Of a DNA stretch of 64,000 nucleotides, positions 34,690 through 64,000 are shown piece after piece. The stretch is taken from positions 22,203 through 86,202 of the forward strand of contig JBDTZG010000006.1 of the NCBI GenBank assembly GCA_040005235.1. The letters run 5' to 3'. The notes below the pieces were generated by a model that saw only the letters and a program-made list of their open reading frames with translations, had not been told where the DNA came from and made no database searches. The position numbers were made by a program, and so were the translations under genes. The number at the start of each line of letters is the position of its first letter. The first letter of the stretch is position 1. This stretch comes from Acidobacteriota bacterium. GTDB taxonomy: Bacteria; Acidobacteriota; Thermoanaerobaculia; Multivoradales; UBA5704.

Positions 34690-36009
34690 ATGAAAATCCA
34701 AAGATGGACTTCGATGGCGGTGATCCTGGGGGTCATCGTCCTGTCGGCTGGCATGACCGCCTCTCCCGCGCGGGCCGATCATGGGTCGTTACGGGGCGAG
34801 GTCGGGATCTACTACGACGAGCTGTCCCCCTATGGGGACTGGGTGGATGACTCGCAGTACGGCGCGGCCTGGTGCCCGCGGCATGTGGGGTCGGATTGGC
34901 GACCGTATTCCGACGGTCGTTGGGTCGACAGCGATTACGGCTGGACCTGGGCTTCGGATGAGCCGTTCGGCTGGGCGACCTATCACTACGGCCGCTGGGC
35001 CTTCGATTCCCGCTACGGCTGGATCTGGGTTCCCGGCACGGTCTGGGCTCCGGCTTGGGTCTCGTGGCAGTACGGGGGCGGCTATGTCGGCTGGGCTCCG
35101 TTGCCGCCGACAGTCGGGTTCGACTTGAACGTCGGCATCCGTCTCGGAGGGCTCTCCCTGAGCACCGTGATCCAACCGCGCGACTACCTCTTCGTCTCCG
35201 AGCGTGGATTCCTGGAGCCGCGGGTCGGCCGCTATGCCGTGCCCCGGACGCGGAACCAGGATCTCTGGCGTAGGGCACGCAACGTGACGAGTTACACCGT
35301 GGTCAATAACCGGGTGATCAATCGCGGTATCGCGATCAACAGCATCGAGCGGGCGACCGGACGCAGAGTTCCGCGCTTCCGGGTTGCGGAAGTGAATAGC
35401 CGCGGCTCAGCGGGGGTCTCCAGGGATCAGCTCAGGGTCTTCCGTCCGCCCTCCGCGCAGCTTCGCTCGATCGACGTCGCAGTTCGCAACGACGCCGGAG
35501 TGCGGCCGGGAATCGGCCGCGATCAACGGAACGATCAACGAGCCGACGACCGAGGTCGTCGCCCGGACGTGAAGCCGGTACCCCGCGGTCAGGAACGCCG
35601 CGACCAGGTCGGAATTGGAACGAAGCCGGCACCCCCCGGCCAGGAGCGCCGGAACCAGATCGAGCCCCGGCCGAACAGCCGCCCGAACAACCGGCCGGTC
35701 ACGAAGCCCGCAGAGCGTCCCAACGCCCGGCCGCCGGTAGTCCAAAATCAGCCGCATCGGCCCGAGCCTCCGCAGGTGAACAAGCCCCGGCCGCAAGGAA
35801 ATCCGCGCCCCGAGGCGAATCGCCCTCAGCCGCGCCAGAACGAGCGTCCTAACGCCCGGCCGCAGCAGCCGCCGCGGCAAAACGATCGGCCCAACGCCCG
35901 CCCCACGCAGCCCCGGGGAGAGCGTCCGGCGGCCAAACCTAACCGGCCGCACGGCGGTGGTGGTGGGGGCGGCAACGCCAAGCCGAAGCAGCATGGTCAC
36001 GGCGGCTAA
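34690..36009 (+). CDS. Secreted WxxGxW-repeat protein with a Pro/Arg/Asn/Gln-rich low-complexity tail
   Basis: GGAGG Shine-Dalgarno. Signal peptide. Repeated YGWxW/YGxW units. The C-terminal 180 aa are degenerate repeats of ERPNARP and the protein ends in HGGGGGGG. Confidence 0.55.
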   Translation: MKIQRWTSMAVILGVIVLSAGMTASPARADHGSLRGEVGIYYDELSPYGDWVDDSQYGAAWCPRHVGSDWRPYSDGRWVDSDYGWTWASDEPFGWATYHYGRWAFDSRYGWIWVPGTVWAPAWVSWQYGGGYVGWAPLPPTVGFDLNVGIRLGGLSLSTVIQPRDYLFVSERGFLEPRVGRYAVPRTRNQDLWRRARNVTSYTVVNNRVINRGIAINSIERATGRRVPRFRVAEVNSRGSAGVSRDQLRVFRPPSAQLRSIDVAVRNDAGVRPGIGRDQRNDQRADDRGRRPDVKPVPRGQERRDQVGIGTKPAPPGQERRNQIEPRPNSRPNNRPVTKPAERPNARPPVVQNQPHRPEPPQVNKPRPQGNPRPEANRPQPRQNERPNARPQQPPRQNDRPNARPTQPRGERPAAKPNRPHGGGGGGGNAKPKQHGHGG

Positions 36010-52996: not shown

Positions 52997-54067
52997 TCAC
53001 CCGACAAGCGCGCGAATCGCGGAGGGTTCCCAGGCGAGCCGGACCCGCCTCCCCTGAGCGCAGGCGGCATCCGCCGCATCCGCGTCGAGGTTCTGCGCCA
53101 CCACGGCCAACTCGCCGCCCTCGTCGAGTTCGACCGTGTAACGGGTGTGCATGCCGAGGTAGACCGCCTCGCGGATCGATCCTGTTGCGCTCGCCTCGCC
53201 CGGTCCGGCGGAAGCTTCGGGCGCAAGCAGGCGGATCCGCTCCGGACGAATCGCCGCGGGACCGGGCGTACCCGTCAGCCGCTGGGCTAGATCCCCAAGC
53301 AGCAGGTTCGTGGTGCCGACGAAACCGGCGACGAACACCGTCCTCGGCCGTTCGTAGACCTCGGCGGGAGTGCCCACCTGCTCGACGCGCCCCTGGTTGA
53401 AGACCGCCAGGCGATCGGACATCGCGAGCGCCTCTTCCTGGTCATGGGTGACGAACAGAAAGGTGATCCCCACCTGGCGCTGGATCGCTTTCAGCTCCGT
53501 CTGCATCTGTTGCCGAAGCTTCAAATCCAAAGCGCCGAGCGGCTCGTCGAGCAGCAGAACGCGCGGCCGGTTGATCAGGGCGCGGGCGAGCGCCACCCTT
53601 TGACGTTGCCCGCCGGAAAGCTGCGCCGGTTTCCGCGCGCCATAGTCGGGCAGACAGACCAGGTCGAGCGCCTCGGCCACCCGGCGACGGATCTCGGGTT
53701 TCGCCACCTTCTTGATCGTCAGGCCATAGGCGACGTTGTCCGCCACCGAAAGGTGAGGGAACAGCGCGTAGTCCTGGAAGACCGTGTTGACGTCCCGTTC
53801 GTAGGGAGGCAGATCGGTGACGTCGCGGCCGTGCAGCTCGACCCGGCCGGCGGTCGGCCGTTCGAATCCGGCGAGCATGCGCAGGCAGGTGGTCTTGCCC
53901 GAGCCTGAGGGGCCGAGCATCGCGAAGAACTCGCCGTCGGCGATTTCGAGCGAGACGCCGTCCACCGCGCGCACCTCGCCGAAATGACGCGAGACGTCGA
54001 CGAACCGAACGGCCATCGCGGCCATCGCGGCCATCGCGGTCATCGCCGTTCGTCCGTCGAGATTCAA
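52997..54067 (-). CDS. Polyamine-type ABC transporter ATP-binding protein (PotA/PotG-like); start ambiguous within an AMA repeat
   Basis: Walker [10 protein letters not shown], signature [15 protein letters not shown], Walker [12 protein letters not shown], and a TOBE-like C-terminus. Confidence 0.8.
54010..54045. repeat. Four tandem copies of the 9-bp unit GGCCATCGC in the potA 5' region
   Basis: GGCCATCGC x3 plus GGTCATCGC. It encodes [12 protein letters not shown] in the potA frame. Confidence 0.6.
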
Positions 54068-60962: not shown

Positions 60963-62414
60963 ATGACGGTTCAGTCGCCCCCTTCGCTCGACATCGCCGA
61001 GAATCTCGGGGAGCTGCGCACGCTCCTCGGTGCCCGGCTGCTTACCGAAGATTCGATTCTCGACAGTTTCCGCTCCGACTTTGGCCGGATGGTTGAGCGG
61101 CGTCCGGCCGCGGTCGCGCAGTGCACGACTTCGGCCGAAGTGGCCGAAGTCGTCCGTTTCTGCCGCCGGAATGCGATCGCGCTCGCACCCCGTGGCCAGG
61201 GCCACACCCAGACCGGCCAGGCCACGACCGAGGGTGGAATCGTCCTCGACACCGCCCTCTTGAATACCATCTACGAAATCGACGCCAAGGGTCTCTTCGC
61301 CGACTGCGGCGCCGGAGTGGTCTGGCGCGATCTGGTGAAAGAGTCGATCGACCGCGGACTCATCCCGCCAACGCTCACCAACAACCTAGGGGTGACGGTA
61401 GCCGGCACCACCTCCATGGCCGGTTTGGGCGTCGCGAGCTTCCGGAACGGTTCGCAGGCCGACAACGCGATCGAGATCGAGGTGGTGACGGGCGAGGGCG
61501 AGATCGTCGTCTGCTCGCACGAGAAGAACCGCGAGCTGTTCGACGCCGTTCGCTGCACGCTCGGCCAGATCGGCATCATCACCCGGGTGAAGACCCGCCT
61601 TCGGCCCGCCAAGCCGACCGTGCGCCAGTACAGCCTGGTCTACGACGACCTCGGCGCCTTCATGGCCGACGCGAAAAAGGTGATGGACGGGACGACGTTC
61701 GCCAGCATGGGCGGCATCTGTTCGCCCGCGCCGCTCGGTTTCCGCCGCATCGGCGAAGGGATGGAGCCGGGGGTCGGCGTGGTCGGCTTCGGCCACTGGA
61801 TCTTCCCGATGTTCCTGACCATCGAGTTCGGCCCCGGCGAAGAGCCGGACGACGACCAGGCGCTCGCCGAGCTATCGCCCTACCGGATCGCCCACATCGA
61901 GGACGCCACGCTGTTCGATTTCTGCCAGCGGATGGAGCCGATGTTCGCGATCTGGCGCCGCACCGGCTACTGGGATCACACTCACCCCTGGATGGAGACG
62001 ATCCTCCCTTGGGACGGCGCCAGGGAATACATCGAGATGATCCTCGCCAACCTCCCCCCCGCGGCGCTCGGCTTGGGCGGCCACGTCCTTCTCTGGCCGT
62101 CGCGCACCGACTGCTCCGAGGTGCCGTACTTCATGCATCCGGGGGGAGACTACGTCCTCGGCTGGGGCGTGCTCGGCGGAATGCCCAAAGAGCCGGCGGA
62201 CTTCTACGAGAAATACCTCCAGAACCTCGATTTCGCGAGCGAGCTGTCGATCCACCAGTTCGGCGGCAAGCGCTACCTCTCGGGCTACATCACCTTCGAC
62301 TCGGCCGAGCGCTGGGCGCTCCACTACGGCGACCAGTGGGAGCCGCTCAAGGCCGCGAAGAAGAAGTACGACCCCGACGGCATCCTCGCGCCGGGCTTCA
62401 TCGTTTGGGAGTAG
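60963..62414 (+). CDS. FAD-linked oxidase (PCMH-type FAD-binding domain)
   Basis: FAD_binding_4-like N-domain (ALAPRGQGHTQTGQATTEGGIVLDT). 483 aa. A GC-rich hairpin follows at 62424-62462. Confidence 0.7.
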   Translation: MTVQSPPSLDIAENLGELRTLLGARLLTEDSILDSFRSDFGRMVERRPAAVAQCTTSAEVAEVVRFCRRNAIALAPRGQGHTQTGQATTEGGIVLDTALLNTIYEIDAKGLFADCGAGVVWRDLVKESIDRGLIPPTLTNNLGVTVAGTTSMAGLGVASFRNGSQADNAIEIEVVTGEGEIVVCSHEKNRELFDAVRCTLGQIGIITRVKTRLRPAKPTVRQYSLVYDDLGAFMADAKKVMDGTTFASMGGICSPAPLGFRRIGEGMEPGVGVVGFGHWIFPMFLTIEFGPGEEPDDDQALAELSPYRIAHIEDATLFDFCQRMEPMFAIWRRTGYWDHTHPWMETILPWDGAREYIEMILANLPPAALGLGGHVLLWPSRTDCSEVPYFMHPGGDYVLGWGVLGGMPKEPADFYEKYLQNLDFASELSIHQFGGKRYLSGYITFDSAERWALHYGDQWEPLKAAKKKYDPDGILAPGFIVWE

Positions 62415-62504
62415 GGGCGGGCGCAACCCCCGCGAGCGATTGAAGCCCCTCGCGGGTTGCGGTCCCCACCACCCGAGGCGCGGCCACCACTCCGCCCGCT
62501 CCGC

Positions 62505-62913
62505 GGAAAGTTCCTGGGGCTCCACGGAATGTTCCTGAGGTCCAGAGGAAAACTCCTGAGGTCGCGAGGAATGTTCCGGAACACCGGAGGAGCATTCCTG
62601 AGATCAAGCGGAACGTTCCTGAGTTTCAGGGGAATGTTCCTGAGTATCAGCGGAGCATTCCTGCCAAAGCACGGAACGTTCCGTAGCGCTAGGAGAACAT
62701 TCCTGAGATTTAGAGGAATGTTCCTGTGCCTTAACGGAGTATTCCTGAGATTCAGCGGAACATTCCTGAGAACCAGAGGAATATTCCTGAGCACCAGCAG
62801 AGCATTCCGGAGCTTCAGAGGAGTTTTCCTCCGGTCCAGTGGAGCATTCCGCGCGCCAAACGGAGTATTCCTCTCATCCTGCGGAGCGTTCCGTGCACCC
62901 GGCGGAGCGGGTT
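62505..62913. repeat. Array of about 19 head-to-tail 21-bp repeats, consensus GGA-RNN-TTCCTGAG-N7
   Basis: Direct reading shows the unit length is exactly 21 bp throughout, with conserved GGA...TTCCTGAG and a variable centre and spacer. Both strands remain open through the array: + frame GxFLRxx, - frame LRNxPLx. It is not CRISPR, because there are no spacers. A related palindrome GGAAAC-agcg-GTTTCC lies at 62942-62957. Confidence 0.85.
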
Positions 62914-63251
62914 TTGCGGTCTCAACACTGCTGTGGCCACCGGAAACAGCGGTTTCCGCCTCCGCGACGCCCCCGGTCTCACCCTATCCCCAGGTGCCGC
63001 GAGACGCCGCACCTGGGACCCGGCCCGATCCGGCGCTTCGCACGCTTCGAGTTGGAGCGATTCGGACCAACCGGGCGAACTGCACAGCCTTTTGAGCAGC
63101 CTTTCGGAGTAATCTTCCCTGTATCGCTGTCTTCGAACCGTCACCGCGCTGCCGTGCGCGGGTGAAAGAATTCGCGGGCCGCTCCCTCCGGAAGGGGGCT
63201 GTCCGCACCCGGAACTTCGATTCGAGTCCTCGCCTGGGGAGAGAACCTCAC

Positions 63252-64000
63252 ATGCTCAAATTCCGCACTCTGCCGTTCCTCGCCCTTGTTGGCTTGGCTT
63301 TTGTCGTCGTTTTGCAGCCTGCCGACGCCCAGTGCGTCAGCTTGACCACTCTGGGATCGGCCGTCACCCAGAACTTCGACACCCTGTCGAACACAGCCGG
63401 GAGCACGACCAACAACCTGACCATCACGGGTTGGTTCCTGACCGAGTCGGGGGGCGGTGCGCGCGACAACGAGCAGTATGCGGTCGACAACGGTGGCAGC
63501 GGCACGGGAGACACGTACAGTTACGGAACGACGGCTGCCACCGACCGCGCTCTGGGCAGCCTTCGCTCCGGCACGCTGATCCCGATCTTCGGCTCCTGTT
63601 TCACCAACAACACGGGTGCCACGATTGGCAACCTGGCGATCGCCTATACCGGTGAGGAGTGGCGCCTGGGAACGGCCGCACGGACCGACCAGATCAATTT
63701 CGAATACAGCACCGATGCGACCGACCTGGTGACCGGCACCTGGACCGGCGTCGCCGCTCTGAACTTCGTCACCCCCGTCACCGCCACGACCGGAGCGAAA
63801 GACGGCAACTTGGCCGCCAACCGGACGGCGCTCTCCAGCACGATCTCCTCCCTTTCGATCGCCAACGGCGCGACCTTCTGGATTCGCTGGATCGATACCG
63901 ACGCGACCGGCGCGGACGACGGCCTGTCGGCCGACGATTTCTCACTCACGCCGACCGGCACGGTGGTGCTGCCCAACCTGACGGTCAACGACGTTTCGTT
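63252..64000 (+). CDS. Secreted protein, 3' end truncated by the window edge
   Basis: ATG at 63252 with a signal peptide MLKFRTLPFLALVGLAFVVVLQPADA. The frame is open to the end of the window. Thr/Gly/Asn-rich beta-rich composition. Confidence 0.5.
   Translation, partial: MLKFRTLPFLALVGLAFVVVLQPADAQCVSLTTLGSAVTQNFDTLSNTAGSTTNNLTITGWFLTESGGGARDNEQYAVDNGGSGTGDTYSYGTTAATDRALGSLRSGTLIPIFGSCFTNNTGATIGNLAIAYTGEEWRLGTAARTDQINFEYSTDATDLVTGTWTGVAALNFVTPVTATTGAKDGNLAANRTALSSTISSLSIANGATFWIRWIDTDATGADDGLSADDFSLTPTGTVVLPNLTVNDVS

Follow-up and report, generated by a model that had tools for sequence, protein, structure and literature searches.

An array of 19 tandem 21-bp units is located between a gene for an FAD-linked oxidase and a gene for a large secreted protein in a 64,000-nucleotide (64-kb) stretch of Acidobacteriota DNA, hereafter called the window. 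Judging from sequence comparisons, this array is a member of a previously undescribed family of non-coding arrays in the Thermoanaerobaculia (Acidobacteriota). Literature searches on the unit strings (GGAACGTTCC and GGAANNTTCC), on 21-bp repeats and on Thermoanaerobaculia repeats found no published description of such arrays. We give roughly even odds (a probability of about 0.5) to the reading that the array is a non-coding cis element, which would serve as a helically phased platform of double-stranded DNA for a symmetric (dimeric) protein. The supporting features are a short palindromic core that is nearly unchanged between related arrays, a strictly kept 21-bp phase, and a unit profile that is symmetric with respect to the two DNA strands.

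Architecture of the array and its intergenic setting

The array and its surroundings have the following features, given in window positions.

60963 to 62414, plus strand: upstream gene (context), encoding an FAD-binding oxidase with FAD_binding_4 and Cytokin-bind domains
62411 to 62472, plus strand: GC-rich hairpin GCAACCCCCGCGAG...CTCGCGGGTTGC, directly after the oxidase stop codon and within the segment that is absent from a close relative
62425 to 63076, no strand assigned: extra segment of about 620-650 bp that is missing in the relative, with a right boundary uncertain by about 30 bp
62483 to 62496, plus strand: flank motif GCCACCACTCCGCC, one mismatch from GACACCNCTCCGCC
62495 to 62504, no strand assigned: left arm, CCCGCTCCGC, of a perfect inverted repeat (10-bp arms) around the array
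62505 to 62903, no strand assigned: array of 19 units of 21 bp, with the palindromic core GGA-RYRY-TCC at unit positions 1-10
62902 to 62911, no strand assigned: right arm, GCGGAGCGGG, of the same bracketing inverted repeat
62904 to 62924, no strand assigned: degenerate 20th unit, GGAGCGGGTTTTGCGGTCTCA, with GGA retained and TCC gone
62989 to 63017, plus strand: hairpin with a 13-bp stem, CCCAGGTGCCGCG aga CGCCGCACCTGGG, in the right arm of the extra segment
63252 to 64000, plus strand: 5′ end of the downstream gene for a large secreted protein, which has a signal peptide and exceeds 1300 amino acids in the source contig

The units are arranged head to tail in a single register, and each is exactly 21 bp long with no indels. 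The consensus unit is GGAACATTCCTGAGATCCAGC, wherein the core is followed by a variable 11-bp spacer (window consensus TGAGATCCAGC). Five core positions (G2, A3, T8, C9 and C10) are invariant, G1 is present in 17 of the 19 units and T7 in 18 of them, and there is free variation at positions 4-6, 15-17 and 21. TRF reports arrays with periods of 21, 42 and 63 spanning positions 62498 to 62872. The string GGANNNTTCCTGAG, with at most one mismatch, occurs 11 times inside the array, compared with 1.3 occurrences expected over the entire window. The array is also AT-richer than its surroundings, with a GC content of about 50% versus 66% for the window. The complete intergenic stretch is identical in two independent public assemblies, and therefore an assembly artefact is excluded.

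An earlier, sequence-only reading of this DNA had described about 19 tandem 21-bp repeats in an 840-bp gap between the two genes. Both statements hold, since there are 19 units plus the degenerate 20th, and the gap measures 837 bp. That reading had also proposed a unit of two helical turns with an 11-nt core, GGA-N3-TTCCTGAG. The 21-bp phase stands, whereas the conserved element is instead a 10-bp palindrome, GGA-N4-TCC.

The array is positioned between the hairpin that follows the oxidase gene, which is terminator-like but lacks a T-run, and a conserved region upstream of the secreted-protein gene. Single GGAANNTTCC sites outside the array, which might hint at a regulon, number 2 in 64 kb compared with 1.4 expected.

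A family of intergenic arrays and an associated small gene

There are more than 118 loci among 185,579 species genomes that match the pattern GGA-N3-TTCC in 21-bp phase. A unit like that of the window is found at nine loci (L003, L012, L013, L031, L069, L100, L102, L106 and L108), all in MAGs of the Thermoanaerobaculia, plus one labelled Holophagales. A scan of metagenomes adds eight further arrays of 15-26 units, all of them intergenic. In total, the family comprises about 20 intergenic arrays of 12-28 units each, and there are at least 2-3 arrays per genome among these Thermoanaerobaculia MAGs, where they occupy unrelated intergenic contexts. All sit between genes that are backed by GC3 and Pfam. 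Such copies in clearly non-coding contexts elsewhere are what the sequence-only reading had expected of a DNA element.

The array is placed between convergent genes at three independent loci:

Arrays L100/L131: between convergent OsmC and ECF sigma factor genes
Array L102: between a convergent PIN gene and EgtD-like methyltransferase gene
Arrays L106 and L121: between convergent GNAT and FGE-sulfatase or methyltransferase genes

At other loci, including that of the window, the flanking genes are co-directional and the array starts 11-200 bp past the upstream stop codon. An all-against-all blastp comparison of the flanking ORFs from 27 loci, seeking a gene family common to the array neighbourhoods, recovered only synteny between close relatives.

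The wider scan also recovers arrays of other kinds. Among its 118 genome loci, 51 arrays reside in long ORFs and carry random bases at unit positions 4-6. One of the strings GGAACGTTCC, GGAATGTTCC or GGAACATTCC is present in 20 of the 67 non-ORF arrays versus 2 of the 51 ORF arrays, and several phyla are represented. At an orthologous locus, arrays of the Pyrinomonadaceae type (GGAAnnTTCC plus TCCTCGGAGGA) likewise stay in phase when aligned, with no small indels. Conservation limited to the core is also seen in other Thermoanaerobaculia arrays, whose spacers are different. The existence of non-ORF GGAAYRTTCC arrays with a 21-bp period in other phyla suggests that this architecture may be more general.

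Within the family, conservation is concentrated in the two outer triplets of the core. In 191 units pooled from ten arrays, GGA (positions 1-3) is 96-98% conserved and TCC (positions 8-10) is 98-99% conserved, and the information content is below 0.7 bit at every position outside these triplets. Purines and pyrimidines tend to alternate in the centre of the core (RYRY), and the preference in the spacer is weak and symmetric. The pooled profile is reverse-complement symmetric about two dyads that are 10.5 bp apart. This symmetry persists for 165 units oriented by a shared downstream gene, where it applies to each of the seven mirrored position pairs (p = 0.04-0.97, none significant after correction). 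Therefore, there is no strand bias of the type associated with RNA or coding sequence.

Pairs of related arrays show which positions change. One genome carries two copies of a 729-bp array-bearing block (L003 and L012) that are 77% identical and can be aligned unit by unit. Mismatches are found at 1 of 90 sites for the six core positions versus 72 of 225 sites for the other positions (p = 2e-11), and the sole gap in the array is one whole unit. Similarly, two species carry orthologous arrays (L106 and L121) downstream of the same GNAT gene, whose proteins are 79% identical. These arrays differ at 9 of 126 core sites versus 143 of 315 other sites (p = 2e-16). Again there is a single gap in the array, which is 21 nt long, and the flanking intergenic DNA has indels of 6 and 7 nt. 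Non-core change thus amounts to 32-45% between these paralogous or orthologous arrays, with the core nearly unchanged. Arrays located upstream of the orphan small gene described below are colinear unit by unit between species (z = 8.8 for a pair with 28 units each, and z = 4.7-7.5 for other pairs), with a non-core identity of only about 50% versus 80-88% DNA identity for the adjacent gene.

Arrays persist at orthologous loci in species whose neighbouring proteins are only 74-79% identical. At the sequence level, these comparisons demonstrate purifying selection on the core and the phase of the family arrays. Therefore, core, phase and approximate unit number are maintained while the rest drifts near saturation. 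The restriction of indels to whole units could partly reflect a slippage mechanism rather than selection.

A subset of the arrays is found in front of an orphan gene (MGEKSYAARLDRWQS...) that encodes a protein of 122-130 amino acids. There are only 18 clusters of this protein at a threshold of at least 75% identity, and all are from this lineage. In all seven intact copies examined, which include two paralogues in one genome and copies with differing upstream neighbours, the array ends 56-154 bp upstream of the start codon. Furthermore, there is a conserved promoter-like block into which the last array cores extend. Deletion has left only a remnant of an eighth copy (L150), in which most of the array, the promoter and 22 codons are gone. 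At the small-gene loci, the array likely controls the promoter.

The orphan protein is predicted to form three long helices followed by a basic disordered tail (pLDDT 74). Structure and fold searches together with Pfam and NCBIfam scans, remote homologues included, returned a generic helical bundle, nothing informative and no DNA-binding homologue. There are 41 remote-homologue clusters of similar small proteins. The gene is not encoded within the 64-kb window. The three-helix protein can be considered a candidate for binding the arrays, by analogy only with autoregulation of the ParR/parC type.

A proposed double-stranded DNA platform and its alternatives

As a platform, the array would present about 20 copies of a 10-bp site with two-fold symmetry, GGA-RYRY-TCC, placed 21 bp apart. 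Because this spacing corresponds to exactly two turns of B-DNA, all of the sites would be located on the same face of the helix. Most likely, a putative symmetric, dimeric protein would bind cooperatively at each unit, and this binding would build a filament or a wrapped nucleoprotein structure of several hundred base pairs. The arrays form a lineage-specific, dispersed family whose members can be gained, lost or duplicated as a block, and an array once in place is kept for a long time under selection on core, phase and, roughly, unit number. A symmetric site, strict spacing, strand symmetry, a free spacer and a constraint on unit number are features that we would expect of a double-stranded DNA platform and not of a gene or a structured RNA. 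It is from these features that we infer a protein that reads the sites, its dimeric state and a role for the complex.

Several observations fit less well with a platform. Apart from the small gene at a subset of loci, the arrays have no common neighbouring gene. In addition, half-sites that are 7 bp apart centre to centre, as in the array core, are unusual for helix-turn-helix dimers. The array also has a very stable predicted fold-back as RNA or single-stranded DNA, and it could have a structural role as a single strand. Finally, many arrays, including that of the window, follow the 3′ end of a gene or separate two convergent genes, positions that offer no promoter to regulate, and therefore a single function is not evident. 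Arrays at gene ends, such as that of the window, possibly have a roadblock, insulator, structural or titration role. Another possibility for the window array is the simple tolerance of a duplicated module.

Perhaps the arrays serve a hitherto unknown chromatin or insulator system that is lineage-specific and directed by sequence, wherein they act as loading platforms and a small orphan protein polymerizes on the phased GGA-N4-TCC sites. We consider this more elaborate proposal to be distinctly doubtful. An orphan protein, possibly the three-helix one, would wrap 400-600 bp into a defined nucleoprotein body that controls the gene for the protein itself and that marks or insulates other intergenic boundaries. 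Duplication of the array-plus-gene module would then seed orphan arrays such as that of the window.

If a protein does read the arrays, several chromosomal sites in a poorly studied lineage of uncultured soil bacteria would specify a nucleoprotein structure of 400-600 bp that is sequence-specific and helically phased. Its architecture would resemble that of a plasmid centromere, but it would be chromosomal and long kept by selection. GGA-RYRY-TCC at 21-bp spacing provides a precise and testable motif for DNA-affinity capture, and there is one candidate partner gene.

An alternative that we regard as unlikely is that the array is a mobile or selfish modular repeat. Such a MITE- or BOX-like element would be non-autonomous, have short inverted-repeat ends and spread or duplicate between intergenic sites without any gain for the host, and GGA-N4-TCC would represent sites for its own transposase or recombinase. 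A close relative, whose oxidase is 90% identical (L123-L125), has the same order of oxidase and secreted-protein genes with only 222 bp between them and no array. In the extra segment of the window, the array is preceded by a left arm of 80 bp and followed by a right arm of about 170 bp. The junctions of the segment share a short direct repeat, CGGGCG(C)AAC, and in the relative this site is occupied by about 35 bp of different sequence. Given this relative and the duplicated 729-bp block, an array-bearing block can therefore be gained, lost or duplicated. The perfect 10-bp inverted repeat around the window array and the recurrence of GACACCNCTCCGCC about 10 nt beyond where several family arrays end are also consistent with mobility, as is the presence of multiple arrays per genome in unrelated contexts.

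However, no transposase or recombinase gene adjoins any of the copies, and the outer arms are not conserved between genomes beyond an end motif of about 14 nt. Rather than being numerous and near-identical, the copies are few and old. The two copies of the 729-bp block are the best within-genome pair, and others share only the core. There is no match in plasmid, phage or viral collections. Moreover, dead selfish DNA would not be expected to persist so long at orthologous loci with such strong purifying selection on its core and phase. Evidence for true transposition of the array block is incomplete.

It is also conceivable, but quite unlikely, that the array functions in a transcript. It could be a 3′ or 5′ UTR element that folds into a long imperfect hairpin to affect transcription termination, exonuclease block or RNase III cleavage, or it could be a CsrB-like sponge. 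The predicted fold-back is indeed very stable on both strands (-220 and -205 kcal/mol, z about -9.8). Placement shortly after stop codons at many loci and between convergent genes at three would suit a UTR element, and about 20 GGA motifs at 21-nt spacing over 400 nt match the layout of CsrB. However, the stability of the fold-back arises because the composition of the unit is symmetric. There is no excess of complementary pairs at mirrored variable positions in any of three registers (z from -2.7 to +1.4), and comparison with shuffles of unit order or columns gives z values from -3.7 to +2.4 with inconsistent sign.

Likewise, the strand-symmetric profile has no one-strand excess of G-U-type changes. 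A bulge created by a small indel would not disrupt a hairpin, yet the phase is strictly kept. Because its complement UCC always accompanies GGA, the GGA motifs would be paired and not exposed as they are in CsrA sponges. There is no Rfam match for the window region or for five related loci, and a scan of positions 62300 to 63400 for promoter and terminator consensus sequences found nothing.

It is very improbable that the array represents iterons or a partition centromere belonging to an integrated plasmid or prophage. Such elements do contain short repeats in tandem and in helical phase, each with a conserved core, but the flanking genes are ordinary chromosomal genes, and there is no rep, par or integrase gene nearby. 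A blastn search with the array against 72,556 plasmids and 50,697 phages returned no match, and a pattern scan of viral contigs found only short, near-perfect, unrelated arrays of 5-6 units. Furthermore, there are several arrays per chromosome at syntenic positions across species. The proposal from sequence alone that this is a protein-binding array therefore survives as to kind, a DNA element with core-only conservation, 21-bp phase and strand symmetry, but not as to plasmid-type iterons.

We reject, as having almost no chance of being correct, the idea that the array encodes, or once encoded, a heptad-repeat protein (LRNxPLx if read from the minus strand, GxFLRxx if read from the plus strand). 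On sequence evidence, the array is non-coding. Both frames are free of stops across the window array. However, this openness, which is complete or nearly so in three of the six frames, arises only because the consensus unit contains no stop in those frames. Stops are found in all six frames in 7 of 10 arrays (nine related arrays and the window array itself, read from source contig L119), the open frame differs among the rest, and the eight metagenome arrays carry stops in most frames. Of the six frames, the minus frame does have the largest proportion of synonymous differences (29 of 77 differing codons). The description of these differences as mostly synonymous in the sequence-only reading is not upheld, since 48 are non-synonymous.

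Other features also argue against coding. GC3 is 0.60 in the LRNxPLx frame versus 0.89 and 0.84 in the two flanking genes, and one of the invariant bases A3, T8 or C10 falls at a third codon position whichever frame is chosen. The minus-strand ORF continues through the hairpin into the 3′ end of the oxidase gene, the annotation of the source contig has no gene call at the array, and the unit profile lacks the asymmetry of a coding strand. A search for LRNxPLx heptad proteins in 5.8e9 protein clusters returned one spurious match, which is a singleton ORF call on the orthologous array L121 that runs on into out-of-frame junk, and neither array translation matches Pfam. By their construction, arrays of this type lack stops in several frames and are liable to be called as ‘repeat proteins’, which calls for caution in annotation given that one such call on an array is already in public data. 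True heptad coding arrays with the repeat EASxxPP do exist in large Thermoanaerobaculia ORFs (L040 and L103), and they likewise have a 21-bp period and even a GGAAGCTTCC-like string. However, they are located within long ORFs with a flank GC3 of 0.95, whereas the family of the window array has stops in all frames and no ORF context.

Comparison with known systems

Two other known systems were considered for the window array and rejected. In CRISPR arrays, which are accompanied by cas genes, the repeats measure at least about 23 bp and alternate with unique spacers of comparable size. The window array has a 10-bp core, an 11-bp spacer and a 21-bp period, and there are no cas-like neighbours. 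A series of ECF-sigma promoters (GGAAC ... CGT) does not fit, as AAC is not conserved across the family and the spacing from GGAAC to the next CGT is 20 nt, not 16-17.

The sponge RNAs CsrB and RsmZ also have about 20 conserved GGA motifs spaced by about 20 nt over about 400 nt. In contrast to these RNAs, the arrays have an equally conserved UCC, are strand-symmetric and have no evident hairpins that would present GGA in loops, nor is there an Rfam match, promoter or terminator.

REP/BIME, BOX and ERIC elements and MITEs are likewise lineage-specific, intergenic, multi-copy and palindromic, vary in presence between relatives, and frequently follow stop codons or separate convergent genes. BOX elements also hold a tandemly repeated internal module. 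However, the family arrays lack the GTAG or CGTC tag of REP/BIME, and hairpin pairing is not kept by covariation, unlike the stem of the imperfect palindrome of 20-40 bp that typifies REP/BIME. They maintain a strict 21-bp phase over hundreds of base pairs with only 6 of 21 positions constrained, and they combine a low copy number with long retention. No RAYT (TnpA-REP) or transposase gene was seen in the retrieved array flanks. The distribution of the arrays resembles that of REP/BIME or BOX elements, without their tags and hairpin covariation.

Arrays of the parC/ParR type and iteron arrays share with the family tandem short repeats at a multiple of the helical repeat, wherein a conserved core is joined to a freer spacer. 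The parC of plasmid R1 has 11-bp iterons, pSK41 has 20-bp repeats, and the omega system has heptads. As with parC/ParR, cooperative coating by dimers into a filament would be expected. Just as parC is located upstream of parMR, at some loci the array is directly upstream of a small gene and overlaps its promoter. The family differs in being chromosomal and dispersed with several arrays per genome, in having 12-28 units rather than 4-10, and in having GGA-N4-TCC, a 10-bp palindrome, as its core. The family also lacks ParA, ParM and Rep genes, and many copies are at gene 3′ ends. Although it is not a member of those families, the array may, by analogy, be functionally akin to the centromere, operator and iteron arrays of plasmids.

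The small gene beside the arrays

There is an orphan small gene associated with the 21-bp arrays, and it is confined to the Thermoanaerobaculia lineage, where its products form 18 clusters at a minimum of 75% identity. An array of 20-28 units is located upstream of the gene in every intact copy listed here, and the distance from the end of the array to the start of the gene is 56-154 bp.

Orphan small gene and its decayed module
L031, 1677-2069: orphan small gene
L069, 1006-1374: orphan small gene
L108, 5743-6123: orphan small gene
L136, 8843-9217: orphan small gene
L147, L148 and L149, 3001-33xx: orphan small gene
L150, 2895-3315: decayed copy of the array-plus-small-gene module

The product is 122-130 amino acids in length, with the sequence MGEKSYAARLDRWQS..., and is predicted by structure modelling to carry a basic tail and three long helices. 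There are 41 clusters of remote homologues representing similar small proteins. When compared with L148 as the reference, the decayed copy exhibits a 489-bp deletion wherein the first 22 codons, the promoter block and most of the array are gone.

Repeats and RNA elements in the window and near array loci

The window gap that holds the array (62415-63251) was compared with the corresponding region of an array-less relative (L123, 6453-6674). Where the relative has what looks like a canonical terminator after its oxidase gene (GGGCGCC...GGCGCCC plus a T-rich run), the window carries a different GC-rich hairpin that lacks a T-run.

Several other elements were observed in the window and near array loci.

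Additional elements
Window, 35829-35912: two copies of a 42-bp tandem unit (81% match)
Window, 54010-54046: 4.1 copies of the 9-bp tandem unit CGGCCATCG
L003, 469-503 and 2389-2423: dispersed repeat of ~32-35 bp
L012, 4670-4704 and 6479-6512: the same dispersed repeat
L100, 1211-1256, minus strand: Acido-Lenti-1 RNA motif (RF01687), match below threshold

The dispersed repeat is present in at least four copies, 94-100% identical, across two array loci of the MAG SMAG_U4328, and is unrelated to the 21-bp arrays. The RF01687 match (33.9 bits, E=3e-4) falls below the gathering score of 37 and is located immediately downstream of OsmC, some 300 bp from the array.

Arrays and coding sequence

A 21-bp array of GGAAGCTTCCGCACCACCTCC resides inside an ORF of more than 3 kb at two loci (L040, 1685-2041; L103, 4952-5245). 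This look-alike is truly coding, encodes heptads of the EASxxPP type, and has flanks with a GC3 of 0.95. Thus, one DNA string is found in both coding and non-coding arrays of Thermoanaerobaculia. The public gene call P0001 (L121, 1987-2607; 206 amino acids, no domains) is an ORF that runs through the array downstream of a GNAT gene and then on into junk sequence, and it exemplifies how arrays come to be annotated as hypothetical proteins.

Related or analogous arrays in other groups

The core GGAAYRTTCC is likewise seen in non-ORF 21-bp arrays from Planctomycetaceae, Bacteroidales/Tannerella, Spirochaetes, Verrucomicrobiia and other Acidobacteriota.

Arrays with palindromic cores
L004, L014, L018, L035, L050, L053, L073, L077, L092, L105: non-ORF, GGAAYRTTCC core
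L007, L011, L041, L059, L066, L088: Pyrinomonadaceae type

The 10-bp palindrome GGAAYRTTCC is carried by 20 of the 67 arrays outside long ORFs, but by only 2 of the 51 coding arrays. The Pyrinomonadaceae-type unit, GGAAnnTTCC plus TCCTCGGAGGA, is doubly palindromic. At one orthologous locus of this type (L041 and L059), the arrays align in phase, small indels are absent, and the central dinucleotide varies among CG, CA, TG and AA. The GGAAYRTTCC arrays of these other groups could be either analogous or related to the family found in the window.
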